Assembly: GCF_036507355.1 (NCBI RefSeq)
Contig: NZ_AP027877.1
Length of the DNA stretch: 64,000 bases
Reading direction: 5' to 3' (one strand)
Origin: Escherichia coli
Lineage (GTDB): Bacteria > Pseudomonadota > Gammaproteobacteria > Enterobacterales > Enterobacteriaceae
In this document: positions 14,729 to 30,029 of the stretch, one piece after another
Layout: each line of letters begins with the position of its first letter
How positions within the stretch are numbered: position 1 is the stretch's first letter
The notes under the pieces: generated by a model
Databases searched by the model: none
Seen by the model: only the letters and a program-made list of their open reading frames with translations
Told to the model about the DNA's origin: nothing
Program-made: the position numbers and the translations under genes

Positions 14729-17107
14729 ATGTCCAACAATGGCTCGTCACCGCTGGTGCTTTGGTATAACCAACTCGGCATGAATGATGTAGACAGGGTT
14801 GGGGGCAAAAATGCCTCCCTGGGTGAAATGATTACTAACCTTTCCGGAATGGGTGTTTCCGTTCCGAATGGTTTCGCCACAACCGCCGACGCGTTTAACC
14901 AGTTTCTGGACCAAAGCGGCGTAAACCAGCGCATTTATGAACTGCTGGATAAAACGGATATTGACGATGTTACTCAGCTTGCGAAAGCGGGCGCGCAAAT
15001 CCGCCAGTGGATTATCGACACTCCCTTCCAGCCTGAGCTGGAAAACGCCATCCGCGAAGCCTATGCACAGCTTTCCGCCGATGACGAAAATGCCTCTTTT
15101 GCGGTGCGCTCCTCCGCCACCGCAGAAGATATGCCGGACGCTTCTTTTGCCGGTCAGCAGGAAACCTTCCTCAACGTTCAGGGTTTTGACGCCGTTCTCG
15201 TGGCAGTGAAACATGTATTTGCTTCTCTGTTTAACGATCGCGCCATCTCTTATCGTGTGCACCAGGGTTACGATCACCGTGGTGTGGCGCTCTCCGCCGG
15301 TGTTCAACGGATGGTGCGCTCTGACCTCGCATCATCTGGCGTGATGTTCTCCATTGATACCGAATCCGGCTTTGACCAGGTGGTGTTTATCACATCCGCA
15401 TGGGGCCTTGGTGAGATGGTCGTGCAGGGTGCGGTTAACCCGGATGAGTTTTACGTGCATAAACCGACACTGGCGGCGAATCGCCCGGCTATCGTGCGCC
15501 GTACCATGGGGTCGAAAAAAATCCGCATGGTTTACGCGCCGACCCAGGAGCACGGCAAGCAGGTTAAAATCGAAGACGTACCGCAGGAACAGCGTGACAT
15601 CTTCTCGCTGACCAACGAAGAAGTGCAGGAACTGGCAAAACAGGCCGTACAAATTGAGAAACACTACGGTCGCCCGATGGATATTGAGTGGGCGAAAGAT
15701 GGCCACACCGGTAAACTGTTCATTGTGCAGGCGCGTCCGGAAACCGTGCGCTCACGCGGTCAGGTCATGGAGCGTTATACGCTGCATTCACAGGGTAAGA
15801 TTATCGCCGAAGGCCGTGCTATCGGTCATCGCATCGGTGCGGGTCCGGTGAAAGTCATCCATGATATCAGCGAAATGAACCGCATCGAACCTGGTGACGT
15901 GCTGGTCACTGACATGACCGACCCGGACTGGGAACCGATCATGAAGAAAGCATCTGCCATCGTCACCAACCGTGGCGGTCGTACCTGTCACGCGGCGATC
16001 ATCGCTCGTGAACTGGGCATTCCGGCGGTAGTGGGCTGTGGTGATGCAACAGAACGGATGAAAGACGGTGAGAACGTCACTGTTTCTTGTGCCGAAGGTG
16101 ATACCGGTTACGTCTATGCGGAGTTGCTGGAATTTAGCGTGAAAAGCTCCAGTGTAGAAACGATGCCGGATCTGCCGTTGAAAGTGATGATGAACGTCGG
16201 TAACCCGGACCGAGCTTTCGACTTCGCCTGTCTGCCGAACGAAGGTGTGGGACTTGCGCGTCTGGAATTTATCATCAACCGTATGATTGGCGTCCACCCA
16301 CGCGCACTGCTTGAGTTTGACGATCAGGAACCGCAGTTGCAAAACGAAATCCGCGAGATGATGAAAGGTTTTGATTTTCCGCGTGAATTTTACGTTGGTC
16401 GTCTGACTGAAGGGATCGCGACGCTGGGTGCCGCGTTTTATCCGAAGCGCGTCATTGTCCGTCTCTCTGATTTTAAATCGAACGAATATGCCAATCTGGT
16501 CGGTGGTGAGCGTTACGAGCCAGATGAAGAGAACCCGATGCTCGGCTTCCGTGGCGCGGGACGCTATGTTTCCGACAGCTTCCGCGACTGTTTCGCGCTG
16601 GAGTGTGAAGCAGTGAAACGTGTGCGCAACGACATGGGGCTGACCAACGTTGAGATCATGATCCCGTTCGTGCGTACCGTAGATCAGGCGAAAGCGGTGG
16701 TTGAAGAACTGGCGCGTCAGGGGCTGAAACGTGGTGAGAACGGGCTGAAAATCATCATGATGTGTGAAATCCCGTCCAACGCCTTGCTGGCCGAGCAGTT
16801 CCTCGAATATTTCGACGGCTTCTCAATTGGCTCAAACGACATGACGCAGCTGGCGCTCGGTCTGGATCGTGACTCCGGCGTGGTGTCTGAACTGTTCGAT
16901 GAGCGCAACGATGCGGTGAAAGCACTGCTGTCGATGGCGATTCGTGCCGCGAAGAAACAGGGCAAATATGTCGGGATTTGCGGTCAGGGTCCGTCCGACC
17001 ACGAAGACTTTGCCGCATGGTTGATGGAAGAGGGGATCGATAGCCTGTCTCTGAATCCGGACACCGTGGTGCAAACCTGGTTAAGCCTGGCTGAACTGAA
17101 GAAATAA
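14729..17107 (+). CDS. ppsA: Phosphoenolpyruvate synthase
   Basis: 792-aa [34 protein letters not shown]... Confidence 0.95.
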
Positions 17108-17163: not shown

Positions 17164-18810
17164 TTATTCAATCTCTTCACAGGCATCCTGAGTTAACCGC
17201 CGCATAATATCTTTTCTTAACAAAAACTTTTGTATTTTACCTGAGGCAGTGCGCGGTAGTTTTTCGATTACCACGATATGTTCAGGATATTTATATTTTG
17301 CGACCCGTTTACGGCTAAAAAAAGCCACCACCTCTTCCAGCGATAATGAATGATGCGGCGCTTTCAGCACGACATAAGCGCATGATCGTTCACCTAAACG
17401 TTCATCGGGCATTGCAACCACACAGGCATCGTGAATTTTAGGATGCTGCAATAAAATATCTTCCACTTCACGGCTGCTAATATTTTCGCCGCCGCGGACA
17501 ATAATATCTTTTTTGCGTCCGGTAATTTTTATATAGCCAGCCTCATCCATGCGGCAGAGATCGCCGCTGTAATACCAGCCTTCTTCATCCAGGGCACGGG
17601 CGGTTAATTCAGGTTCATCAAAATACCCCATAAACACATTGGGGCCACGCGAGGCTTCTTCACCTTCGCAACCTGGCGGTAAGGTCTTGCGTGCGTCATC
17701 GACCACTTTAATCTCTACACCTGCGGCAGCGTAACCATCGGTGTGCATAAAGCGCGACAAAGGATCATCGAGATTCACCACCGCATGCGGCGAACTTTCT
17801 GTGGAACCATAAACACTTAATAATTTAATGCCGCGCTGCTGGCATTCACGTGCCACTTTTTTGGGGATTGTGGTACCGCCGCAAAGAAAGAAACGCAGCG
17901 CTGAAAGGTCTGCGGGCTGTTTCTCTAGTAAATTCAAAAGATCATAGACAAACGGCGTTGCGCCGAGCATACAGGTGCAACGCTGCTGCTCAAGCAGCGC
18001 GAGACACGCATCAGGAGTGAAAATATCTAACAACACGCTGCGAGCGCCAATTAAGAATGGTGCCGTTACGCCATGCAGAAAGCCCGTTGCGTGACCAAGT
18101 GGCGCAGGCATCATAAAGACATCCTGCCAGGTCAGATTCAGCCGCGCGCAATAAGCTCGCTCACTGGCGAGAATATTGTTATGCGTTAGCATCACGCCCT
18201 TTGGCAGGCCCTCGGTTCCGGAGGTAAACAGCACCGCGGCTAATTCATCGCCGTGGGTCGTTATCGCCGTGGTCAGTGGGGTATTGTCGGCGATAATCTG
18301 ACTTAATGAGAGGGAAGAGGTGGCGGGAGCCAGTTTGTCCACGCCGACAATTTGTTGTAGTTGTGGAAGCTGATTTTGCAGCGGCAGGATTAAATCTACC
18401 GGACGCGTTTGTTTAAACAACGTCGGTGCAAAGAACATTTTTGCCTGACACTTATTGAGCACCCACACCAGTTCTGCTTCTCGCCAGGAAGGCAACAACG
18501 GCACGGAAACCGCACCGGTTTTCAGGCAGGCAAGATAGATAACAGTAAATTCACACCAGCCAGGCAGCTGAAAAGCGATGCGATCGCCCGATTCAATACC
18601 GTTAGCCAGTAACCAGCTTGCCAGACAGTTCGCGGCGTGATCGAGTGCGCTATAGGTGTACGATGCACCATGATTATCGACCACGGCAATTTTGTCAGGC
18701 ATCGCACGAGCGGTCTGCTGCCAGTAATCAGCCAGCGAAGCATCGCCCCATAACCCTTGCTGACGATACGCCGCACGACGTTGTTCGTTAAACGTTAATG
18801 TCACTTTCAT
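17164..18810 (-). CDS. fadK: Short-chain acyl-CoA synthetase (anaerobic)
   Basis: 548-aa AMP-binding-family protein; start as given by the track, not independently verified. Confidence 0.85.
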   Translation of the reverse strand: MKVTLTFNEQRRAAYRQQGLWGDASLADYWQQTARAMPDKIAVVDNHGASYTYSALDHAANCLASWLLANGIESGDRIAFQLPGWCEFTVIYLACLKTGAVSVPLLPSWREAELVWVLNKCQAKMFFAPTLFKQTRPVDLILPLQNQLPQLQQIVGVDKLAPATSSLSLSQIIADNTPLTTAITTHGDELAAVLFTSGTEGLPKGVMLTHNNILASERAYCARLNLTWQDVFMMPAPLGHATGFLHGVTAPFLIGARSVLLDIFTPDACLALLEQQRCTCMLGATPFVYDLLNLLEKQPADLSALRFFLCGGTTIPKKVARECQQRGIKLLSVYGSTESSPHAVVNLDDPLSRFMHTDGYAAAGVEIKVVDDARKTLPPGCEGEEASRGPNVFMGYFDEPELTARALDEEGWYYSGDLCRMDEAGYIKITGRKKDIIVRGGENISSREVEDILLQHPKIHDACVVAMPDERLGERSCAYVVLKAPHHSLSLEEVVAFFSRKRVAKYKYPEHIVVIEKLPRTASGKIQKFLLRKDIMRRLTQDACEEIE

Positions 18811-18866
18811 TTTGGACTCTCGAAACAGAACGTCAGGCCCGATGTGCGGGCCTGTGGGATGCGTGA

Positions 18867-19160
18867 TTAGCCGTAACGGAAATCAATACCGAAGGTGCCT
18901 GCGGGGTATTGCCATTGTTCGAGAATAGTGTTGCCACACAGCACCCGACAGGTGCCGCACTCCAGACAACCGGCAGAATCAAAATGAATGTTTCCTGCAT
19001 CATCCTGCTTATACAGTCCGGCAGGGCAGGCTTTCATTAATTTTTGAAATTCTTTGATGTCGGGATTTGCCGCCAGAATGATATGCGGATGGCCCTCATC
19101 AACATGGAATTTATTGACGCCTAATTTGACGTCAACGTTGACCGTAGCGTTCTGGCTCAT
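18867..19160 (-). CDS. ydiT: Ferredoxin-like protein (FixX-like)
   Basis: 97 aa with CxxC/CGxC pattern; start overlaps the ydiS stop. Confidence 0.85.
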   Translation of the reverse strand: MSQNATVNVDVKLGVNKFHVDEGHPHIILAANPDIKEFQKLMKACPAGLYKQDDAGNIHFDSAGCLECGTCRVLCGNTILEQWQYPAGTFGIDFRYG

Positions 19161-20446
19161 AGCGCGGTTGCTCCCTTAATGCCATCTTTCAGCAGATTGA
19201 TCAGCCCGATTTTCTTCGCATGTCCAAGAATCATTTTTCGTACCGGCTGGTTTGGTTTGCCGTCAATGGTGAACATATCGTTCATGATGTCGGCGACCAT
19301 GCGCGGATACTGACTAAACAGGCGCGGGTTTTCCATCAGCGCCGGGATCTTGCGAAAATGCTGCATATCACGCATGACGCAGCTTTGTTCCAGCTCACGT
19401 TTGTATTGCGCCAGACTGCTGGCGGAGAAATCCGCGCGTTCTTTGGCGGCGATCACCGTTGTGGCGGCAGCCTGAGCCGATGCAATGGCTAAATCCATGC
19501 CGCGGACCGTAAAACCCAAATTCAGGCAGAAGCCTGCGGCGTCACCAACGATCATCACGCCCTCGTTAACCAGTTGTGGCACCATTGCCAGACCGCCTTC
19601 CGGCACCATATGCGCGGAATATTCAAGCAGTTTGCCGCCGCTAATCAGCGGGCGAATGGCGGGGTGTTGTTTAAAATCTTCCAGCATTTGCGGCACGCTT
19701 TTTTGCGCATGGGCGATATCACCCAATCCACAAACCAGCCCCAACGATATGGAATCCTTATTGGTATAGAGGAATCCGCCACCCATCAGACCGTCAGAAG
19801 GGGAACCGGCAAACAGCCAGGCGGCACCTTCCTCGCCCGTAATATTAAAGCGATCGTTGATCTGTTCTGGTGTAAGGCCAATAACCTCTTTAACACCAAC
19901 AGCGTAATGATGCGGATCGGAAGCGGGAACCATTCCCAGCGAGCGGCCAAGCATCGAGTTAACGCCATCAGCCAGAATCACCACATTCGCTTCGAGAATA
20001 TCATCCCCAGCCTGCACGCCAGTGACCTTGTTTCCTTCACGAACCAGCGCATCGACGCGAACGCCTGGGATAAACTGCGCGCCCGCCTGCTCGGCTTGTT
20101 CCATCAACCACGGGTCCAGACGATTACGCAATACGGTATAAGATGCGTGTTGCGGAACATCTGGTTGCTCGCGGTGAAAATCGAGGGTAACGGCGCTTTC
20201 TTCGGTTAAGAAGGAGATTTTCTCGCGTGTGACCTTGCGTTCTACCGGCGCTGATACTGCAAAGCCTGGAATGATTGCTTCAAGTGTGTGGGCATAAAGA
20301 CGCCCGCCGGTCATGTTTTTACATCCGGCACTGTCGCCGCGTTCTATCACCAGGACATCCAGCCCGGCACGCGCCATGACCAGTGCGGCAACGCTACCAG
20401 CAACGCCCGCACCGACCACAATGGCATCAAATTTGTCATCCGACAT
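19157..20446 (-). CDS. ydiS: FAD-dependent ETF-quinone oxidoreductase-like (FixC-like)
   Basis: 429 aa with N-terminal FAD fold FDAIVVGAGVAGSVAALVMA. Confidence 0.88.
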   Translation of the reverse strand: MSDDKFDAIVVGAGVAGSVAALVMARAGLDVLVIERGDSAGCKNMTGGRLYAHTLEAIIPGFAVSAPVERKVTREKISFLTEESAVTLDFHREQPDVPQHASYTVLRNRLDPWLMEQAEQAGAQFIPGVRVDALVREGNKVTGVQAGDDILEANVVILADGVNSMLGRSLGMVPASDPHHYAVGVKEVIGLTPEQINDRFNITGEEGAAWLFAGSPSDGLMGGGFLYTNKDSISLGLVCGLGDIAHAQKSVPQMLEDFKQHPAIRPLISGGKLLEYSAHMVPEGGLAMVPQLVNEGVMIVGDAAGFCLNLGFTVRGMDLAIASAQAAATTVIAAKERADFSASSLAQYKRELEQSCVMRDMQHFRKIPALMENPRLFSQYPRMVADIMNDMFTIDGKPNQPVRKMILGHAKKIGLINLLKDGIKGATAL

Positions 20447-20501
20447 GCGTTATGCTCCCTTCCCGCTGCGTTTACAGCGGGAGATGTGGTTGAAAGGGGA
20501 A

Positions 20502-21440
20502 TTAGCGGCTCAACTGGCTAATCAGGGCAGGGACGACTTTGTAGATATCGCCCACCAGACCGTAGTCGGCATAGTTGAAGATTGGCGCATTTTTATCTTT
20601 ATTGATGGCGACAATCACTTTTGCGCCGTTGCCGCCAACCATATGTTGGATCTGCCCGGAGATCCCCAGCGTCAGGTAGAGATCGGATTTCAGCAACACG
20701 CCGGAGACACCGATATAACGTTCACGCTCCATCCAGTTCTCGCCTTCGGCAATTGGACGTGAACAGCCGACTTCAGCATTCAGCACCGCCGCCAGTTCGT
20801 GGACCATTTTCAGGTCATCCTGCGCCGCCAGACCACGACCGACGCCAACCACACGTTTTGCTTTGCTCAGGTCCACGCTGCTTGCGGCTTTCGCACGGCG
20901 TTCGCGACAGAGAATTTCATGACGCGGAGCAACGTAAGGTACCGTTTCTGTCGGGCACTGATGAGAGGTATCACTGGTGCACGGTTCCTGAACACCGGGT
21001 GCAAGGGTAATGATCGCCAGCGAGCTGTTGATCTTTTCCTGAGCGAACGCTAACCCGCCATACATCCGGTGTTCGACGCAAATGTGACCATCGACAATAT
21101 CCACCGCCGTGGCATCGTTCACCAGCGCCGCATTCAGTTGCACACTTAACCGTGCTGCCAGAGCTTTACCACGTTTCGTCGCGGCCAGTAGCAACATAGC
21201 GGGGTGTTTATCTTTCAGCAGAGCAGCAATGCTTTCGGCGTAATTTTCAGTGCGTTGCAGCGCGTCGTTTTGCGCAAGAACATAAATACATTTTGGCCCA
21301 TAAGGCATAACTGCCTGCGCCTGGTCGGTATTTTGTACAATGGCATACACCTGTTGGCCCCATTGCTGAGCGCCGCCAAACAGTTCAGCATAACGTTCAG
21401 GATTATCGCTAAAGACCCAGACGCTGTTTAATTGACTCAT
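20502..21440 (-). CDS. ydiR: Electron transfer flavoprotein alpha subunit (FixB-like)
   Basis: 312 aa, ETF-alpha-like. Confidence 0.88.
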   Translation of the reverse strand: MSQLNSVWVFSDNPERYAELFGGAQQWGQQVYAIVQNTDQAQAVMPYGPKCIYVLAQNDALQRTENYAESIAALLKDKHPAMLLLAATKRGKALAARLSVQLNAALVNDATAVDIVDGHICVEHRMYGGLAFAQEKINSSLAIITLAPGVQEPCTSDTSHQCPTETVPYVAPRHEILCRERRAKAASSVDLSKAKRVVGVGRGLAAQDDLKMVHELAAVLNAEVGCSRPIAEGENWMERERYIGVSGVLLKSDLYLTLGISGQIQHMVGGNGAKVIVAINKDKNAPIFNYADYGLVGDIYKVVPALISQLSR

Positions 21441-21459
21441 CGTTTCTTCTCCGTAGGCT

Positions 21460-22224
21460 TCAGTTCAGGGCTTTCTTCAGATGTTCCGCCAGCTCGGCAA
21501 TGGCCTCCGGCGAATCGTTATCGAGAATGATGTGCTTACGTTCTGTTTGCGGCGGTACGCGAATGCCGGTCAGTTCAGCAAGTGGTGCGCTCTGGCTCCA
21601 GCCAATATCACTTGCCTGCCACTGATTTACCGGTTTTTTACCCGCGCCGAGAATGGCTTTCATCGAAGGAATGCGTGGCACGTTAATATCGGAGGTGACG
21701 CAGAGCACGGCTGGAACAGAGAGTTCAATAACTTCAACGTTATCTTCAAGCGTGCGTTCAATCACCAGTGTATTTCCCTGACGCTGAATAGCACTCACTG
21801 CATTAATCACCGGAAGTTGCAGAATTTCTCCGACCAGCAAGCCAACCTGCTGGGCATAAAGGTCGCCGGAACCTTCACCAAAGATCAGTAAATCGAAGCC
21901 GATCTTTTCAACTGCTGCCGCCAGCGCTTTTGCGGTATCGAGAGGCAGTGCATGTTCAAGTTGCGCATCCTGCACCAAATACAGGCTGTGCGGCCCGCGA
22001 GATAGCACGTCTTTGCGCACTTTCGAGTTCTGCAACAATGAGCCGCCAACGGTCAGCGCGGCTATCTCATCGTCATCTGTTGCAAGCTGGCTTGCAGCTT
22101 CAATGGCATTGAGATCGAACTGGCTGATTTTGGCGTCGGCATTGTCGAAATTCAGGGTGTATTCTGGAGTGACAACAATGTCCTGTTCTTCAGGCACCAG
22201 CTTAAAGCAGGTTATTATTTTCAT
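21460..22224 (-). CDS. ydiQ: Electron transfer flavoprotein beta subunit (FixA-like)
   Basis: 254 aa from MKIITCFKLVPEEQDIV...; track ORF extends 33 codons upstream. Confidence 0.85.
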   Translation of the reverse strand: MKIITCFKLVPEEQDIVVTPEYTLNFDNADAKISQFDLNAIEAASQLATDDDEIAALTVGGSLLQNSKVRKDVLSRGPHSLYLVQDAQLEHALPLDTAKALAAAVEKIGFDLLIFGEGSGDLYAQQVGLLVGEILQLPVINAVSAIQRQGNTLVIERTLEDNVEVIELSVPAVLCVTSDINVPRIPSMKAILGAGKKPVNQWQASDIGWSQSAPLAELTGIRVPPQTERKHIILDNDSPEAIAELAEHLKKALN

Positions 22225-22538
22225 GATTTCTCCTGTGAGTCGCATACGGAACCATCTCCGATGGAAGGTAAAAATGGCCTGAAAATAGTGTGCGATAGCG
22301 GTGCGGGGTTTTCGACGGAGCAAGCTGTTTTCCTTGCCAACAATCTTGCAAAAAAATGCGATCGCTAAAACAAAAGTGCAATTTGCGGCAATATAGTTAT
22401 TCCATGACCGTACAATCTTGCATTCAGGGTAAATAATCTTGTTTAGCTCTCGCTAAACGCGGTTGTATAACCGCAATACACGCCGTATTTTATCCGGCAT
22501 ATATTGTTTTTGCTTGCTCATGGAATAGGGAGGTTGTC

Positions 22539-23450
22539 ATGTATCAACGCTGTTTTGATAATGCCAGTGAAACGCTGTTTGTCGCCGGTAAAACGCCACG
22601 GCTTTCACGTTTTGCATTTAGCGATGATCCAAAATGGGAGTCTGGACATCACGTTCATGACAATGAAACCGAGCTGATTTACGTCAAGAAAGGGGTGGCA
22701 AGGTTTACCATCGATTCTTCGTTATATGTCGCGCATGCAGATGATATAGTGGTGATAGAACGCGGCAGGCTGCATGCGGTGGCCTCTGACGTTAACGATC
22801 CGGCAACGACGTGTACCTGTGCGCTGTACGGCTTTCAGTTTCAGGGGGCTGAGGAAAATCATCTACTGCAACCGCATTCTTGTCCGGTAATTGCCGCGGG
22901 GCAGGGAAAAGAAGTCATTAAAACCTTATTTAATGAGCTAAGTGTGATTTTGCCGCAAAGTAAAAATAGCCAAACATCTTCGTTATGGGATGCATTTACC
23001 TATACATTAGCAATTCTTTACTACGAAAACTTTAAAAATGCTTATCGTTCGGAGCAGGGGTATATTAAAAAAGATGTTCTGATAAAAGATATTCTTTTCT
23101 ATCTGAATAATAATTATCGCGAAAAAATCACTTTAGAACAGTTATCGAAAAAATTTCGTGCCAGCGTCAGTTATATTTGCCATGAATTTACCAAAGAGTA
23201 TCGTATTTCCCCAATTAACTATGTTATTCAACGGCGTATGACGGAAGCAAAATGGTTACTCACTAATACTGAATTATCACAGGCAGAGATCTCCTGGCGT
23301 GTGGGTTATGAAAATGTCGATCACTTTGGCAAACTGTTTTTGCGCCATGTCGGCTGTTCACCCAGCGATTACCGCAGGCAATTTAAAAACTGTTTTGCGG
23401 AACAAGAAATCCTATCTGAATTTCCTCAACCGGTAAGTCTTGTTGGATAA
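22539..23450 (+). CDS. ydiP: AraC/XylS-family transcriptional regulator
   Basis: 303 aa with C-terminal AraC-type HTH; divergent from ydiQ. Confidence 0.85.
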   Translation: MYQRCFDNASETLFVAGKTPRLSRFAFSDDPKWESGHHVHDNETELIYVKKGVARFTIDSSLYVAHADDIVVIERGRLHAVASDVNDPATTCTCALYGFQFQGAEENHLLQPHSCPVIAAGQGKEVIKTLFNELSVILPQSKNSQTSSLWDAFTYTLAILYYENFKNAYRSEQGYIKKDVLIKDILFYLNNNYREKITLEQLSKKFRASVSYICHEFTKEYRISPINYVIQRRMTEAKWLLTNTELSQAEISWRVGYENVDHFGKLFLRHVGCSPSDYRRQFKNCFAEQEILSEFPQPVSLVG

Positions 23451-23492
23451 ATCTGGCGGCGCAGTTTGTTAAGAAGCTGCGCCGCCTGCAGA

Positions 23493-24644
23493 TTATTTGT
23501 TCTGATAGTCTTTCAGGATCTGCCGACCTGCTACGTAAATCATAATTTCGTCTGTACCGCCGCCGATACGTTCACAACGGACATCACGCCAGAAGCGGGA
23601 GACGCGCGCCTCATCGGTATAGCCCAGACCGCCCATGATTTGAATCGCATCATCAATGACTTCCATTGCGGTACGTGCGCAATACAGTTTTGCCAGCGCC
23701 GCGCTGGTGCGCAGTGACTGATGCTGATCGGCTTGCCATGCCACTTTCAGCACCATGTTGCGCATGTTGTCGATCTTAATCGCCATCAGCGCCAGTTTTT
23801 CCTGGATCATCTGGTTATGCCCAATGGGTTTACCAAAAGCGATACGCTGGTTGGCATAGCGAGCGGCATCTTCAAAGGCACACTCGGCAAAGCCGGTGCT
23901 GCGCGCGGCGTTGATCAGGCGCTCCATCTCAAAGTTGTACATCACATTGAGGAAACCCATTCCTTCTTCGCCCACCATGTCGCTCTCTTCAACTTCCACG
24001 TTGTCGAGATAGACTTCGCAGGTGCTGAGCATATGCCAGCCGATTTTATGCAGCGGGTTAATCTTAATGCCGGGCTTACTGGAGTCGACCCACCACAGGG
24101 TGAAGACTTTTTTGGGATCTTTCGGTTCAGGATCGCGCGCCAGCACCAGCATATACGGGTACTCTTTCGCACCGGTAATAAAGGTTTTCTGTCCGTTGAT
24201 GTAAACCTTGCCGTTTTTACGCGTGTAAGTGGTGGTGGCACTGTTGTTATCTGAGCCAGCACCTGGTTCCGTCAACGCTAGGGCATAGGCGGGGTCGCCG
24301 GTTTCCAGGGTGCTTTCTGCCGTTTTACGTAGCTGCTCTGCAGAACCGAAACGGCGCATACTGTGAATACATTGACCGTTGGTGATCAAAAATGCCGGAG
24401 CACCGCATTTTGACACTTCCATCAGCGCCAGCATCTGGGTGACGTAATCCGCAGGGATACCACCAAATTCTTCCGGCACGCCAAGCATGGAAATACCGTT
24501 ATCCGCCAGTGCCCGCATAAATTCACGCGGGTATGTCCCGTTTTGATCGCAGGTGCGGAAATACTCTTCCGGAAAGTTAGTCGTAATCAGTTCGCGAATA
24601 CTGGCCAGCAGCAGTTCTTGTTCTTCAGTTAAAGAAAAATCCAT
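23493..24644 (-). CDS. ydiO: Acyl-CoA dehydrogenase-family protein
   Basis: 383 aa from MDFSLTEEQELLLASIRELITTNFPEEY...; good RBS (aggagt) upstream; track ORF extends 18 codons. Confidence 0.88.
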   Translation of the reverse strand: MDFSLTEEQELLLASIRELITTNFPEEYFRTCDQNGTYPREFMRALADNGISMLGVPEEFGGIPADYVTQMLALMEVSKCGAPAFLITNGQCIHSMRRFGSAEQLRKTAESTLETGDPAYALALTEPGAGSDNNSATTTYTRKNGKVYINGQKTFITGAKEYPYMLVLARDPEPKDPKKVFTLWWVDSSKPGIKINPLHKIGWHMLSTCEVYLDNVEVEESDMVGEEGMGFLNVMYNFEMERLINAARSTGFAECAFEDAARYANQRIAFGKPIGHNQMIQEKLALMAIKIDNMRNMVLKVAWQADQHQSLRTSAALAKLYCARTAMEVIDDAIQIMGGLGYTDEARVSRFWRDVRCERIGGGTDEIMIYVAGRQILKDYQNK

Positions 24645-24657
24645 CGTGATACTCCTG

Positions 24658-26253
24658 TTAATGAGCCGCTTCAGGCAGGACAAAACCCATCGCCGCATCG
24701 ATAAATAATCTTTCGTCCATCAGTTTGAGTTCTGGCGAAATCACTGGGGTGAAATCCATTTTGTCGAGAATATCTTTTTGTAAATCGACGCCAGGGGCGA
24801 TTTCGATTAAATGCAGGCCGTCTTCTTTCAGCGTGAATACTGCGCGCTCAGTGATATAACGAACATCCAGCCCTCGCTCGAGAGCGATTTTTCCGCTGAA
24901 AGTAATTTCCGGTAGTTCCCGAATAAATTTCTTCACCCGTCCTTCCTGGACGATATTTAATTTGCCGTCGGTAATTTCTGTTTTTAAACTGCCCGCAGTT
25001 AATGTGCCGCAGAAAATGATTTTCTTCGAAGTGGCACTGATATCAATAAATCCACCGGTGCCCATGATTTTACCATTGAATTTATGCACGCCGACGTTAC
25101 CGTGCTGGTCGACTTCAGCAAAACTCAAATAACAAACATCCAGACCACCACCGTGATAAAAATCAAACTGGGACGTCATATCCAGAATGGCACGGGTATT
25201 CACGTTCGCGCCAAAGGCGATACCCTGTGAAGTAATTCCGCCAATCGGACCTGTTTCTACCGTCAGAATAAAGTCATCAGCACAACCTTCTTCCCGGGCG
25301 ACCAGGCCAATGCCGTCAGCAATACCGACGCCGACATTCCCCACCGCGCCTTTACGCATTTCGAATAATGCACGCCGCGCAACTAATTTACGTTGGTTTA
25401 GGGGCAGGCTAAGTTTGGTGCTGTCATCAAGGGTGAAGTCACCAGAAATAAAGCGGTTAACCGGCGCACCGCCATACAGTTGGGTTTGATCCGGATCGAC
25501 CACCACAATATCCACCAGATAACCCGGAATACGGACAGATTTAGGATGCAGCGTGGCTTTCTTAACCATTTTCTGCACCTGCATCATCACAATACCGCCG
25601 TTATTGTGCACCGCCTGGGCAATAACCAATGCGTCGAGATACATCACCTCATCTTCAAAAGTGGCGTAGCCTTCGCTGTCGCAGGTGGTAGCGCGAATGA
25701 AGGCGATATCTGGCGCAATCGCTTTGTAATAGAGATATTCTTTGTTATCAAACTCGACCAGTTTAATCAGGTCTTCTTTAGTGACTTCATTCAGTTTGCC
25801 GCCTTGCTGGCGTGGATCGACAAATGTCCCGATGCCAATATCACTAATAATACCTGGCTGGTGGGCTGCGGCGGCGCGTAAGGTTTGTGTAAGTACACCT
25901 TGTGGATAGTTATAAGCAATAATTTTATTTTGTTCTGCGAGATCAGAAATACGCGGCGATTGTCCCCAGTGACCGCATAATGCCCATTTCACCAGACCTT
26001 CTTGCGCCAGCGGACTAATACCGCGGTCGGCGCGATCGCCAAGCCCTGTTGGACTAATAATCGATAAATTACGTGGCGTTTGAGTCTGTTTATATTTATC
26101 AGCAAGAGCAGTAATTAACGTGGTGGCTTCCAGAATACCGCCGCCAGCGCCTAACACACAAAGTGTTGCTTCGTCGGGAATATAATTCACCGCTTCCTGT
26201 GCCGACAGGACCGGCACTCGTCCATTAATACGAGGTGGTTTTACAGGTTTCAT
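24658..26253 (-). CDS. ydiF: Acetate/acyl CoA-transferase (fused alpha/beta)
   Basis: 531-aa MKPVKPPRINGRVPVLSAQEAVNYIPDEATLCVLGAGGG... Confidence 0.88.
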   Translation of the reverse strand: MKPVKPPRINGRVPVLSAQEAVNYIPDEATLCVLGAGGGILEATTLITALADKYKQTQTPRNLSIISPTGLGDRADRGISPLAQEGLVKWALCGHWGQSPRISDLAEQNKIIAYNYPQGVLTQTLRAAAAHQPGIISDIGIGTFVDPRQQGGKLNEVTKEDLIKLVEFDNKEYLYYKAIAPDIAFIRATTCDSEGYATFEDEVMYLDALVIAQAVHNNGGIVMMQVQKMVKKATLHPKSVRIPGYLVDIVVVDPDQTQLYGGAPVNRFISGDFTLDDSTKLSLPLNQRKLVARRALFEMRKGAVGNVGVGIADGIGLVAREEGCADDFILTVETGPIGGITSQGIAFGANVNTRAILDMTSQFDFYHGGGLDVCYLSFAEVDQHGNVGVHKFNGKIMGTGGFIDISATSKKIIFCGTLTAGSLKTEITDGKLNIVQEGRVKKFIRELPEITFSGKIALERGLDVRYITERAVFTLKEDGLHLIEIAPGVDLQKDILDKMDFTPVISPELKLMDERLFIDAAMGFVLPEAAH

Positions 26254-26396: not shown

Positions 26397-27155
26397 TTAT
26401 GCCTGATGTAAAATAGTTAATACTGTGCGCAAATCATTTACCGAGATTTGCCCTGGCGCAGAGGCTTTTTTTACCGCACCAAAAGTTGCCGCCGAGCCAA
26501 ATACTTCACCAGCCAGACGAGAAATTACGCCAGTTTTTGCCATCGACATCGTGATGATTGGACGATCGGCATACTGCTCCTGCATCTCCAGGGTCGCGGC
26601 AAGCAACGTCAGCACATCGCTGGTACTTTGCGGCATCAGCGCAATCTTAGGAATATCGGCGTCGAAGGATTGCATTTTGCGCAGACGGGCAATGATTTCT
26701 TCGGCTTCCGGCGTTTTATGGAAGTCATGGTTGGACATGACAACTTTCACATCATGCGCGTGGGCGTAGGCGACGGTTTCTTTAACCTGATCATCGCCGG
26801 TAAATAACTCCAGATCGATCATATCAACCAGGCCGCTGTCGATGGCTGCACGATTGAGTGCAATATAAGCCTCGGTGGAAATCGCCTGCTCGCCGCCTTC
26901 TTTGGCACTGCGGAAGGTAAACAGCAGCGGTTTTTCTGGCATGGTTTCACGGAGAATTTTTGCCGCCGCCATGACAGACTCCACATTGGAGAGGTCGGCA
27001 AAGTGGTCCACACGCCATTCCAGAATATCAAAGTCCGCTTCACGATAGGCGAGAGCTTCGGATTTCACGCGGGCGATATCTTTCGCCATCAGCGAGACGA
27101 TGATTTTAGGTGCGCCCGTACCAATGACGAGATCTTTTACAGTTACGGTTTTCAT
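26397..27155 (-). CDS. aroD: 3-dehydroquinate dehydratase (type I)
   Basis: 252-aa [39 protein letters not shown]... Confidence 0.93.
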
Positions 27156-27185: not shown

Positions 27186-28052
27186 TCAGGCACCGAACCC
27201 CATGACCTGTTTAACATATTCCAGAGGGAAATCTTTGCCAGTCCATAACGTGAACTGTTCAGCCCCTTGCCACAACAACATGCCGTATCCATCAATCGTT
27301 TTGCAACCAGCTTGTTGCGCCTGCCGCAATAACTTCGTCATATGCGGGTTATACACGCATTCAGTGACCAGCAGTCCCGGATGTAACAGACTGATATCAT
27401 TAACTAATGATTCATTCTCAAGGGGTTTCATACCCACTTTTGTGCCATTGGTTAAAATGTCGGCGGAAGCCAGGGCTTCAGCAAAGGCTTGCTGATCGGC
27501 GAGATCGGTAACCGTGACGACACAATCGGTGTTTTCGTTAACCCGCTGCGCGAAGGCGAGGGCTTTATCGAAGAACTCATCCCGACGGTTAAAGAGTTTA
27601 ATTTCTTTTAAACCTTCAATTGCCCCCTGCGCGCCAATCGCCGTTGAGGCACCTCCGGCCCCTAACAGCACCATCGTTTTGCCTTTGATATCAAAACCGC
27701 TCTCTTTAATGGCGCGAATATGGCCCGTGCCGTCGGTGTTATAGCCACGCAGATAGCCATCATCATTAACGATGGTGTTGATGGCACCCACCAGTTTGGC
27801 TGCTGGCGTTAATTCATCAACATATTCACACGCCAGTTGTTTGTTCGGCATTGATACGCCAGTTCCGCGCATTTTTAGAGCTTTTAATCCTTCAATTGCT
27901 CCGGGAAAGCTATCGTTATCCACTTCGAAGGCCATATAGGTAAATGGCAATCCCGCTTTTTCTAAGGCTTTATTCTGCATTTCAGGCGATAAACTGTGGC
28001 GGATAGGATAAGCCATCAACCCAATCAATTCGTATTTTGCGGTAACATCCAT
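27186..28052 (-). CDS. ydiB: Quinate/shikimate dehydrogenase
   Basis: 288-aa [39 protein letters not shown]... Confidence 0.92.
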
Positions 28053-28063
28053 AATTAACTCCT

Positions 28064-29065
28064 TTAACCTCTATGCTTAATTGTGTTTAACCGGGTGCTA
28101 AATTTGCGCTCGCCAAACCGCACATCATTCTCAGGAATAATAAAAACGCGGTAATAGCGGATAAAAACAATAATTGCGGTAATCAGGGCCAGCAGCGCGA
28201 AAGTAAAATCGAGAACAATGATATATTGCAGGCCGATGTTCGACAGATAACCGGTAATCAGCGGAATAACAAAGTTAGCCAGTCCACCCATCATCATATA
28301 AATACTGGTGACTTTGGCTTTGCTTTTTGGGAAAAACTCTGACATGACCGAAACACCGAGCTGTAAAATGCCGCCAGCTGCTGAGAAACCGATAACAAAG
28401 GCGCCGGCATTACACACCAGTGGAGAAGGGTACAGGTAGATAATGGCTGCTGTTATTGTTGCCAGTGCAGAGTTAAATACATTAGCCCAGATGGGCCGGA
28501 CCATTTTTTTCAGTAGTGCGGCAAAAATAAAGACACAGACCAACGAGCCCATACTGTAATAAGAGATGGTTTTTAATGCCTCAGCTTCTGACATACCAGC
28601 AAAAGCCATCGCATATTTGGGCATCCACACCACAATCACATAAAAGGTCGAGAATGCGGCTACACCGAACAGTACCGATGAAACACCTTCCAGCCAGACT
28701 AACGGTTTGCTGTTCATTTGCGGTAATTCATTAGCTACGCTGGCGTCCACCAACTGGCTGGGGAATTTGCTTTTCAACAGCATCAGCGTGATCAGTACAA
28801 ACAGAATACCCGGAATAATCAGCCCATAGCCGTACCAGATATTATTGAGCAACATATAGCTCACCAGCATTGGGTAGAACATTTGCCCGAATGACACCAT
28901 CGCTTTAACCAGTATGACCGCCGAACCAGAGGCTTTCGGAAAGCATTCCATGAGCGCGGGGTAGCCACCCGTATCCAGCGCTGAGTTAGCGATACCTACG
29001 CACACTGCCAGACCGTAGGCGAGAGTTAAATTCGGGCAAGCGGGAATACCAAAGAAGAATAGCAG
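28064..29065 (-). pseudogene. ydiN: MFS transporter ydiN, 5'-truncated by IS1 (C-terminal ~330 codons remain)
   Basis: The MFS reading frame runs without a stop straight into the IS1 left end at 29066 (...LLFFFGIPACPNLTLAYGLAVCVGIANSAL...); the track 'start' at 29005 is an internal GTG. Confidence 0.8.
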
Positions 29066-29120
29066 GGTGATGCTGCCAACTTACTGATTTAGTGTATGAT
29101 GGTGTTTTTGAGGTGCTCCA

Positions 29121-29396
29121 GTGGCTTCTGTTTCTATCAGCTGTCCCTCCTGTTCAGCTACTGACGGGGTGGTGCGTAACGGCAAAAGCACCGCCGGACA
29201 TCAGCGCTATCTCTGCTCTCACTGCCGTAAAACATGGCAACTGCAGTTCACTTACACCGCTTCTCAACCCGGTACGCACCAGAAAATCATTGATATGGCC
29301 ATGAATGGCGTTGGATGCCGGGCAACAGCCCGCATTATGGGCGTTGGCCTCAACACGATTTTACGTCACTTAAAAAACTCAGGCCGCAGTCGGTAA
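29121..29396 (+). CDS. insA: IS1 InsA
   Basis: 91-aa [43 protein letters not shown]... Confidence 0.95.
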
Positions 29397-29818
29397 CCTC
29401 GCGCATACAGCCGGGCAGTGACGTCATCGTCTGCGCGGAAATGGACGAACAGTGGGGCTATGTCGGGGCTAAATCGCGCCAGCGCTGGCTGTTTTACGCG
29501 TATGACAGGCTCCGGAAGACGGTTGTTGCGCACGTATTCGGTGAACGCACGATGGCGACGCTGGGGCGTCTTATGAGCCTGCTGTCACCCTTTGACGTGG
29601 TGATATGGATGACGGATGGCTGGCCGCTGTATGAATCCCGCCTGAAGGGAAAGCTGCACGTAATCAGCAAGCGATATACGCAGCGAATTGAGCGGCATAA
29701 CCTGAATCTGAGGCAGCACCTGGCACGGCTGGGACGGAAGTCGCTGTCGTTCTCAAAATCGGTGGAGCTGCATGACAAAGTCATCGGGCATTATCTGAAC
29801 ATAAAACACTATCAATAA
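29315..29818 (+). CDS. insB: IS1 InsB frame, expressed as the InsAB' transposase by -1 frameshift
   Basis: InsB reading frame; A6 slippery run at 29372-29377 inside the insA 3' end. The 5' boundary is frame-defined only. Confidence 0.85.
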
Positions 29819-29924
29819 GTTGGAGTCATTACCCAGCTTGCTGACGGCTTGAAGAGAGTCACAGTATCTTGTGCAACATTATTGGAAAGAGTGAGGGGCG
29901 AGGTAGCGAAGCGGAAAAATGTTA

Positions 29925-30029
29925 AAAAAAAGCCCATCGTGGGAGATGGGCAAAGACTACACACAGCAATTCGTTGTTTCACTCAGGGGATTTCCATGCT
30001 TATAAATCAATATGTTGATTTATAACCGT
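29925..30029 (-). ncRNA. rprA: Small RNA RprA (positive regulator of rpoS translation)
   Basis: Minus strand ACGGTTATAAATCAACATATTGATTTATAAGCATGGAAATCCCC...CCCACGATGGGCTTTTTTTT recognised as RprA, with -10 TACTAT at 30036-30041 and an intrinsic terminator. Confidence 0.85.

Follow-up and report, generated by a model that had tools for sequence, protein, structure and literature searches.

The fadK–ydiF locus of Escherichia coli as part of a candidate quinate/shikimate regulon

The fadK–ydiF block at positions 17164–26253 of a 64,000-nucleotide stretch of Escherichia coli DNA (contig NZ_AP027877.1; the whole stretch is called the window below) comprises the genes fadK, ydiT, ydiS, ydiR, ydiQ, ydiP, ydiO and ydiF. 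We consider there to be about an even chance that this cluster is one half of a regulon, ydiN-ydiB-aroD-ydiF-ydiO / ydiP / ydiQRST-fadK, which would serve the coenzyme A (CoA)-dependent reduction of the enoate shikimate with electrons from the quinol pool. A preliminary description of the same DNA had tentatively assigned the block to an anaerobic oxidation of short-chain acyl-CoA. That assignment agrees with the standard annotation in the literature, but the conserved linkage to ydiN-ydiB-aroD, a putative operator shared with these genes and the paralogy to the Cai/Fix system favor quinate/shikimate-type acids as substrates and probably a reductive direction. Slightly more tentatively, we suggest that E. 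coli, Salmonella, Citrobacter, Yersinia, Serratia, Dickeya and Sutterella may use dietary quinate or shikimate as an anaerobic electron acceptor by means of a cytoplasmic, CoA-dependent YdiO-YdiQR-YdiST system.

Linkage of the block to ydiN, ydiB and aroD

All eight genes are intact open reading frames, seven of them on the minus strand and ydiP alone on the plus strand. The Pfam domains of all eight products agree with the gene labels given in the preliminary description, and the grouping around the AraC-type regulator gene ydiP that it reported was confirmed (Table 1). Along its entire length, the 9.09-kb stretch is a 98.5% match to the annotated fadK...ydiF region of E. coli genomes, and 5346 of the 5426 complete genomes of this species carry a block covering at least 80% of it. 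The eight proteins are 95.9–99.8% identical to their K-12 counterparts over their full length (YdiP, 98.7%; FadK, 98.2%). The block is the known, poorly characterized ydiFO-ydiP-ydiQRST-fadK locus between ppsA and aroD, the latter being annotated under this name in the best-matching E. coli genome. With aroD, ydiB and ydiN, the functional unit in all likelihood reaches past position 26253.

The case for this extension lies in the conserved gene neighborhood. Relatives of YdiO were collected by protein search in two identity bands, a one-genome-per-species scan yielding 79 loci, which were mapped by tblastn with the proteins of the window. Wherever the YdiO orthologue was at least 80% identical and enough flanking sequence was available, ydiN-ydiB-aroD-ydiF-ydiO were found to be contiguous on one strand (41 of 41 loci). 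These loci come from about a dozen enterobacterial genera, including Escherichia, Citrobacter, Kosakonia, Intestinirhabdus, Yersinia, Serratia, Dickeya, Brenneria, Symbiopectobacterium and Prodigiosinella, as well as from the betaproteobacterium Sutterella. In Sutterella seckii and S. wadsworthensis (57–60% GC; loci L042, L046 and L092), fadK-ydiTSRQ are located divergently upstream of the linked genes. Every orthologous locus, those of Sutterella and the rearranged locus L011 included, encodes a YdiN orthologue (64–97% identity) before ydiB or ydiF.

Three metagenome contigs of a 42–44% GC lineage (L011, L091 and L093), about 70% identical among themselves, display the genes in other orders. 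L011 reads AraC <> ydiN-ydiF-ydiO-ydiQ-ydiR-ydiB-aroD-ydiS-ydiT; L093 reads AraC-MFS-MFS-ydiF-ydiO-ydiQ-ydiR-ydiB-aroD-ApbA-MaoC, with MFS standing for major facilitator superfamily genes; and L091 reads MFS-ydiF-ydiO-ydiQ-ydiR-aroD-ydiS-ydiT-fadK. In all three of these rearranged operons, the dehydroquinase gene is placed between the genes for the electron-transferring flavoprotein (ETF) and the genes behind them, as is ydiB in two (L011 and L093). The embedded dehydratases are type I dehydroquinases, and the dehydrogenases of L011, L093 and the Sutterella locus L046 pass the quinate/shikimate dehydrogenase (YdiB) equivalog while failing the AroE models. FadK-like ligases are also encoded in the Sutterella-type cluster L092 and in L091. 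The linkage to quinate/shikimate enzymes has outlasted at least five rearrangements and one transfer between classes.

At positions 15197–17125 of L093, where FixCX would follow, the products encoded are an oxidoreductase resembling ApbA/ketopantoate reductase, an (R)-hydratase of the MaoC type and a protein with a glyoxalase fold. This hints that the CoA ester is processed further, by dehydration and reduction, in some lineages.

Paralogous clusters, which we call type 2, contain YdiO-like proteins at 62–70% identity and were found in E. albertii (L008/L052), Citrobacter youngae (L057), Phytobacter (L048–L049), Budvicia (L053/L083), Pectobacteriaceae and Desulfovibrio, among others (further loci are L059, L054 and, from Desulfovibrio, L004–L005/L058/L060). 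They encode a YdiO-like acyl-CoA dehydrogenase (ACAD), a second, divergent ACAD (~27–29%), a family III CoA transferase, an MFS transporter and ETF beta and alpha, usually together with FixCX and a FadK-like ligase, often with an AraC or LysR regulator and sometimes with a desulfoferrodoxin-like gene. When the loci of the 62–70% paralogues were mapped, ydiB and aroD were absent from the type-2 clusters; the linkage is therefore specific to the YdiO orthogroup.

The type-2 cluster of E. albertii is inserted between ung and trxC. In L006/L007 and L047+L051 (Pectobacteriaceae CE70, Prodigiosinella) and in L029+L050 (Citrobacter sp. NCU1), a type-2 module (AraC-MFS-ACAD2 <> YdiO-like) without ETF genes of its own is found directly downstream of the type-1 fadK, and both reductases of these genomes may share one ETF/FixCX set. 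The NCBIfam YdiO equivalog proved unsuitable for separating the cluster types, as it also accepts the 62–70% paralogues. The YdiO-like protein P0027 (74% identity) was uninformative as context evidence, since it stands alone without a cluster. In L009 and L010, a lone YdiO-like gene (74%) is located beside an aldo-keto reductase gene and an NrfD/4Fe-4S/cytochrome c3-like set; genes for an ETF, a transferase or a ligase are lacking there.

Control sequences upstream of ydiQ and ydiN

The spacer between the divergent genes ydiP and ydiQ contains three boxes of the form GCAAGAT[T/A][G/A]T, which are invariant from Escherichia to Yersinia, Serratia and Dickeya, the remainder of the spacer being poorly conserved. 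The two distal boxes constitute a direct repeat, spaced by 21 bp. In the 22-kb K-12 locus, this 21-bp-spaced pair occurs exactly twice, versus zero occurrences in 200 shuffles. One copy is located upstream of ydiQ, whereas the other, just past ydiM, precedes ydiN. The two copies have the sense orientation, with a related proximal box about 70 bp further along in each case. The same two placements were found in Citrobacter, Prodigiosinella and an Enterobacterales metagenome-assembled genome. Sutterella has one pair in the divergent ydiQ<>ydiN spacer, and L011 has one pair between its AraC gene and its single operon, this pair lying next to the gene of a YdiP homologue (45% identical). AraC-type dimers bind direct repeats 21 bp apart. 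From the presence of the pair at both the ydiN and the ydiQ promoters, we therefore infer that YdiP co-regulates ydiN-ydiB-aroD(-ydiF-ydiO) and ydiQRST-fadK, with the GCAAGAT boxes as its putative operator.

The ydiP–ydiQ spacer is 314 bp long in Escherichia and Kosakonia and 470–880 bp long in Citrobacter, Yersinia, Serratia and Dickeya, the extra length having been inserted between the proximal box and the two distal ones. In Yersinia and Dickeya (L031, ~1907; L033, ~671 and ~1485), single GCAAGAT boxes are also found close to ydiL and ydiM, and the MFS gene ydiM may therefore join the same regulon in some genera. A ChIP-chip (chromatin immunoprecipitation on microarrays) study of FNR reported ydiP/ydiQ as a target, with the site TTGACGTAAATCAA. 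The window copy of this site shows one mismatch. The published site falls inside the ydiP coding sequence, and a search of the ydiP–ydiQ spacer for an FNR site found none.

In the aroD–ydiF spacer, no conserved element past the ribosome-binding site was detected, and the hairpin found there has no U-tail on the coding strand. The lack of a conserved element or a U-tailed terminator on the coding strand is compatible with read-through from aroD; the spacer speaks neither for nor against an internal promoter. Generic scans for sigma-70 promoters and terminators gave fewer hits than shuffles or no more than shuffles, and are hence uninformative. In an Rfam scan, RprA was the sole match, with no RNA element within the cluster.

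In the strain analyzed here, an IS1 element stands in place of 2.2 kb that are present in K-12 and in the best-matching E. coli genome; it is the only IS1 copy in the window, which is about 1.5% diverged from K-12. With these 2.2 kb the strain has lost ydiL, ydiM, the ydiM–ydiN spacer (box pair and ydiN promoter) and the 5' end of ydiN; the alignment to K-12 ends at K-12 ydiN codon ~88. RprA is kept just past IS1. On the model proposed here, the strain would be without the transporter and without the regulated promoter for ydiB-aroD-ydiF-ydiO, with all enzymes still intact. In addition, the upstream ATG at which the 566-aa form of K-12 FadK starts is ACG in this strain, so that the 548-aa form alone can be made. 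The ydiT–fadK spacer contains a GC-rich hairpin, which could be an attenuator or a processing site.

Table 1. Positions of genes, control sequences and other features in the window
Feature	Position	Strand	Description
fadK	17164–18810	−	AMP-forming acyl-CoA ligase, 548-aa form; Pfam AMP-binding and AMP-binding_C
ydiT–fadK spacer	18811–18866		Hairpin at 18834–18854 on the minus strand, without a clear U-tail
ydiT	18867–19160	−	FixX-type ferredoxin-like protein; Pfam Fer4/ETF-QO-like
ydiS	19157–20446	−	FixC-type ETF:quinone oxidoreductase (ETF-QO) flavoprotein; Pfam FAD oxidoreductase and ETFQO_UQ-bd
ydiR	20502–21440	−	ETF alpha subunit (FixB-like); Pfam ETF and ETF_alpha
ydiQ	21460–22224	−	ETF beta subunit (FixA-like); Pfam ETF
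ydiP–ydiQ divergent control region	22225–22538		Three conserved boxes, putative YdiP operator
GCAAGAT[T/A][G/A]T boxes	22433–22442, 22412–22421, 22340–22349	− (ydiQ-sense)	In the ydiP–ydiQ spacer
ydiP	22539–23450	+	AraC-family regulator, cupin-type ligand domain; Pfam HTH_18, Cupin_2, AraC_binding
FNR-like site	22674–22687	−	Within the 5' coding part of ydiP; TTGACGTAAATCAG; K-12 has ...ATCAA
ydiO	23493–24644	−	ACAD-family flavoenzyme; PF02771, PF02770 and PF00441 (N, middle and C domains) above cut-offs
ydiF	24658–26253	−	Family I CoA transferase, fused alpha/beta; Pfam CoA_trans, 168 bits
aroD	26397–27155	−	Type I 3-dehydroquinate dehydratase; NCBIfam TIGR01093, 293 bits; beyond the range of the preliminary description
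ydiB	27186–28052	−	NAD(P)-dependent quinate/shikimate dehydrogenase; NCBIfam equivalog, 668 bits (cut-off 349)
ydiN	28064–29065	−	MFS transporter, 5'-truncated in this strain
IS1 element	29066–29830	+	765 bp; InsA-like open reading frame 29121–29396, InsB-like open reading frame 29315–29818
RprA	29922–30029		Rfam match, 118 bits

Enzymes, electron transfer and a proposed route

YdiO matches 55 ACADs in the PDB at E<1e-30. The glutamate typical of the medium- and short-chain enzymes (MCAD and SCAD) is replaced by glycine in YdiO, its RIGGGTDE motif aligning with IYEGTSE, and E241 of YdiO aligns with the catalytic E254 of isovaleryl-CoA dehydrogenase (IVD; the fragment was verified against 1IVH). 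E241 is invariant in 14 YdiO relatives, and in the alignment CaiA, which is 48% identical to YdiO, displays the same IVD-type arrangement. In IVD and the long-chain enzyme (LCAD), this position of the glutamate accompanies bulky or branched substrates. Among the NCBIfam models on which YdiO scores are those for CaiA, acryloyl-CoA reductase and cyclohexane-1-carbonyl-CoA dehydrogenase, the scores on the last being 185 versus a cut-off of 650 (NF043006) and 140 versus 575 (TIGR03207). FadK scores 1086 bits on its own equivalog, and the next model is that of cyclohexanecarboxylate-CoA ligase (TIGR03208; 420 versus a cut-off of 792), which outranks all fatty-acid ligase families for FadK and likewise for the L091 ligase. 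All of these scores of YdiO, and that of FadK on TIGR03208, lie below the curated cut-offs and indicate resemblance and not membership.

Shikimate is 3,4,5-trihydroxy-cyclohex-1-ene-1-carboxylate, an enoate. Shikimoyl-CoA would be an enoyl-CoA about as large as the esters of the C6–C8 acids that FadK takes in vitro. YdiF gives a full-length match to the YdiF crystal structures 2AHU, 2AHV and 2AHW (1190 bits), and its catalytic Glu333, which forms the glutamyl-CoA thioester, is present in the sequence TVE333TG. Within family I, YdiF is of the propionate/acetate CoA-transferase type.

YdiQRST carries all four subunits of the FixABCX/EtfABCX type, including the quinone-binding domain of FixC and the cysteine motif of FixX; YdiQ is 56% identical to FixA, YdiR 45% to FixB, YdiS 62% to FixC and YdiT 64% to FixX. 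YdiT scores 147 bits on the NCBIfam FixX model, and the motif C45-P ... C65xxC68xxC71xxxC75 can be read from its translation. YdiS exceeds the cut-off of the Pfam domain ETFQO_UQ-bd (37.7 versus 27.7 bits), and its best PDB match is 7KOE_C, the FixC of Thermotoga EtfABCX (E 9e-70), followed by 2GMH, an ETF-ubiquinone oxidoreductase. The preliminary description had stated that the electron acceptor of this chain was not evident from sequence. Since YdiS passes the ubiquinone-binding cut-off and has FixC and ETF-QO as its nearest solved relatives, the quinone pool can in fact be read as the redox partner; the statement holds for the direction of electron flow, which is not readable. The best PDB match of YdiQ is CarD of the caffeyl-CoA reductase–Etf complex (6FAH_B), and the top matches of YdiR are the ETFs of the bifurcating enoyl-CoA reductase complexes 5OL2 (Bcd-Etf), 6FAH (CarDE), 7QH2 (Lct) and 7KOE. 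Canonical ETFs rank below those of bifurcating complexes among the PDB matches of both proteins, which also match NCBIfam models of acryloyl-CoA reductase subunits. The ranking may hint at a second, bifurcating FAD and an NADH site in YdiQR.

The cluster thus encodes an ACAD, an ETF, a CoA transferase and a priming AMP-ligase, all four as in CoA-loop systems. Open reading frames, annotation and Pfam matches of the window revealed no genes for a hydratase, a 3-hydroxyacyl-CoA dehydrogenase or a thiolase in or beside it. Because a transferase, a ligase, an ACAD and an ETF are combined here without hydratase, dehydrogenase or thiolase, the anatomy is that of a CoA-loop enoate reductase and not of beta-oxidation. 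Neither a full beta-oxidation cycle nor co-regulation with one was found, and the shared boxes point instead to ydiN-ydiB-aroD.

In the route that we propose, YdiN would import quinate or shikimate, and YdiB and AroD would convert quinate via 3-dehydroquinate and 3-dehydroshikimate to shikimate in a redox-neutral sequence. FadK would spend ATP on the first shikimoyl-CoA or product-CoA, after which a CoA loop run by YdiF would hand CoA from the product to the incoming substrate. YdiO would reduce the C1=C2 bond of shikimoyl-CoA (or 3-dehydroshikimoyl-CoA) to the corresponding cyclohexane-carbonyl-CoA, and the product, dihydroshikimate, would exit the cell. YdiO would receive its electrons from the ETF YdiQR, itself reduced by the quinol pool via YdiS/YdiT and possibly also by NADH. 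YdiP would sense the substrate and activate both promoters, with FNR adding anaerobic control.

Competing explanations and known systems

Published observations bear on this proposal from several sides. Little et al. (bioRxiv 10.1101/2022.12.26.521950) described reduction of the shikimate enoate to hydroshikimate in formate-dependent respiratory growth of Eggerthella lenta and Sutterella wadsworthensis, and found shikimate in faeces. S. wadsworthensis DSM 14016 carries a ydi-type cluster (L046). The link is circumstantial because the responsible enzyme is not named in that text and S. wadsworthensis has many flavin reductases, any of which might be its shikimate reductase. In a shikimate-accumulating aroK aroL strain of E. 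coli, ydiQ (EXP/STA2) and ydiQRST (STA1/STA2) were among 37–50 significantly up-regulated genes, the induction of ydiQRST falling in late stationary phase. A joint rise of ydiB, aroD and ydiN has been described for a second shikimate producer. We found no earlier statement of the present proposal, or of a connection of ydiB/ydiN to ydiF/ydiO/ydiQ, in the searchable open-access literature, subscription literature being outside the scope of the search.

Like the abundance of flavin reductases in S. wadsworthensis, a number of points speak against a role in shikimate reduction, for which the support consists of gene context, homology and circumstantial expression data. The gene aroD encodes, to our knowledge, the only biosynthetic dehydroquinase of E. 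coli, and its position could be historical; the conserved order within Enterobacterales could reflect vertical inheritance. The box motif is less well preserved before ydiN than before ydiQ, and the stationary-phase induction of ydiQRST could be unrelated to shikimate. We know of no ACAD-type shikimoyl-CoA reductase, and YdiF has reportedly been characterized with short-chain acyl-CoAs. Campbell et al. (2003) reportedly also found a role for ydiO in growth on fatty acids. According to a 2022 review, FadK acts on C6–C8 fatty acids in vitro, and mutants lacking both fadD and fadK cannot grow on fatty acids.

These properties of FadK fit the standard annotation, in which YdiO is the anaerobic counterpart of FadE and acts on short- and medium-chain acyl-CoAs made by FadK, electrons pass through YdiQR-YdiST and quinone to nitrate or fumarate reductase, and FadIJ completes the cycle. 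The label anaerobic beta-oxidation stems from Campbell, Morgan-Kiss and Cronan (2003), and it is repeated in reviews and comparative-genomics papers. Also in its favor, ydiO has been cited as a gene that matters for the use of fatty acids in a fadE background, the path from ETF through ETF-QO to quinone is the canonical oxidative route, and comparative genomics of Salmonella places these genes with anaerobic respiration. We nevertheless regard this explanation as unlikely. Besides the lack of hydratase, dehydrogenase and thiolase genes in the cluster, beta-oxidation needs no CoA transferase, and the nearest paralogous system, Cai/Fix, is reductive. The strict linkage and the shared operator with ydiN-ydiB-aroD would be left unexplained, as would the glutamate that YdiO and CaiA have in common, which is of the IVD type and not of the straight-chain SCAD/MCAD type. 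The y-ome paper lists ydiO as having limited functional information, and the 2022 review notes that YdiQR were proposed merely for their proximity to fadK and that "experimental evidence is lacking"; according to the same review, transcriptomes did not show fadK to be induced anaerobically, and no control by FadR or CRP is known.

The linkage and the shared boxes would apply equally to a module working in the opposite direction, in which YdiF/FadK and YdiO turn gut-derived dihydroshikimate or a related cyclohexanecarboxylate into shikimate, with electrons flowing from the ETF through YdiST to quinone; the shikimate would then enter aromatic biosynthesis via AroK/L or be interconverted with quinate. 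This is the usual direction of an ETF/ETF-QO module, YdiO keeps its catalytic base, and other gut bacteria make hydroshikimate. Such an oxidation appears more doubtful still than beta-oxidation, since CaiA/Fix, CarCDE, Bcd-Etf and acryloyl-CoA reductase are all reductive in vivo, and FNR binding suggests anaerobic use, when reoxidation of quinone is limiting. S. wadsworthensis, moreover, reduces shikimate, and reductive sinks such as Cai and Car typically pair a CoA-loop transferase with a priming ligase. Least probable, in our judgment, is a generic reductase of crotonyl-CoA, acryloyl-CoA or another small enoyl-CoA, or a detoxification module, for which the aroD/ydiB neighborhood would be meaningless. 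YdiO has been proposed as the crotonyl-CoA reductase in engineered reverse beta-oxidation, and both the similarity to the acryloyl-CoA reductase AcrABC in NCBIfam and the transferase type of YdiF would be in keeping with this. A 2026 review, however, reports that deletion or overexpression of ydiO barely alters crotonyl-CoA reduction and butyrate formation in vivo, and a generic role explains neither the retention of ydiB/aroD in the rearranged operons and after transfer to Sutterella nor the operator common to the ydiN and ydiQ promoters.

Should the reduction of shikimate prove to be the function of the cluster, about ten y-genes would be affected, with physiological roles for YdiB, YdiF, YdiO, YdiP, YdiQRST, YdiN and probably FadK. 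The dual quinate/shikimate specificity of YdiB would be explained, and FadK and the "anaerobic beta-oxidation" genes would have to be reclassified. Quinate and shikimate would join the electron acceptors of gut Enterobacteriaceae, metabolic models and engineering projects in which YdiO/YdiQRST figure as fatty-acyl enzymes would need correcting, and the formation of by-products in industrial shikimate production would be touched upon. It would also supply an enzyme route for the reduction of quinate and shikimate by gut bacteria. Older literature describes gut and lactic bacteria that reduce these acids to dihydroshikimate and cyclohexanecarboxylates, precursors of urinary hippurate.

Among known systems, the caiTABCDE-fixABCX genes of E. 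coli are paralogous to the cluster component by component (CaiA/YdiO, FixA/YdiQ, FixB/YdiR, FixC/YdiS and FixX/YdiT, at the identities given above), with 29% identity between CaiC and FadK. The cai/fix system reduces crotonobetainyl-CoA and includes a CoA transferase and a priming ligase; for fixAB, the 2022 review cites Walt and Kahn. Both systems combine an ACAD carrying the IVD-type glutamate with a priming ligase and a CoA transferase. YdiN would be the dedicated transporter of the ydi system, and AroD together with YdiB would supply the enoyl substrate, as the dehydratase/enoyl-CoA hydratase CaiD does in cai. They differ in that the ydi transferase YdiF belongs to family I and CaiB to family III, and in that the regulator is the AraC-type YdiP in one case and CaiF in the other. 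The supply genes linked to ydi encode a quinate/shikimate dehydrogenase and a dehydroquinase, from which we infer the substrate. The CarABCDE system of Acetobacterium woodii (6FAH) likewise relies on a transferase for the CoA loop and a ligase for priming, together with ETF alpha/beta and an enoyl-CoA reductase of the ACAD type, and it reduces a plant-derived enoate, caffeate, as proposed for ydi. The nearest solved relative of YdiQ is CarD, and YdiR and YdiO also match CarE and CarC. In contrast to ydi, Car has no FixCX and bifurcates electrons from NADH to ferredoxin; the ETF-QO that ydi carries implies coupling to the quinone pool.

EtfABCX/FixABCX of Thermotoga maritima (7KOE) and Azotobacter has the same four subunits as YdiQRST but runs from NADH to quinone and ferredoxin or flavodoxin without an acyl-CoA enzyme, whereas ydi encodes an ACAD partner. 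The flavin-type shikimate reductase of Eggerthella lenta would share with ydi the proposed net chemistry and the role of a gut electron sink; it is, however, a soluble/periplasmic enzyme resembling fumarate/urocanate reductases that acts on the free acid, whereas the ydi route would be cytoplasmic and CoA-dependent. The enzymes of alicyclic acid metabolism (AliA ligase, cyclohexanecarboxyl-CoA dehydrogenase and cyclohex-1-ene-1-carbonyl-CoA dehydrogenase) act at C1–C2 of cyclohexane/cyclohexene carboxyl-CoA, and their substrates are the unsubstituted skeleton of dihydroshikimoyl- and shikimoyl-CoA. These alicyclic pathways, however, belong to benzoate and cyclohexanecarboxylate degradation, and FadK and YdiO score far below the cut-offs of the corresponding families. 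Anaerobic beta-oxidation in E. coli (FadK, FadIJ and the proposed YdiO) involves the same genes, and it is the function now given in databases and reviews, but its experimental support concerns FadK and FadIJ only, the roles of YdiO, YdiQRST and YdiF having been deduced from proximity. The cluster was already annotated, and the oxidation hypothesis is about 20 years old; the re-reading proposed here would place the cluster beside Cai/Fix and CarABCDE among the known CoA-loop enoate reductases built from an ACAD and an ETF.

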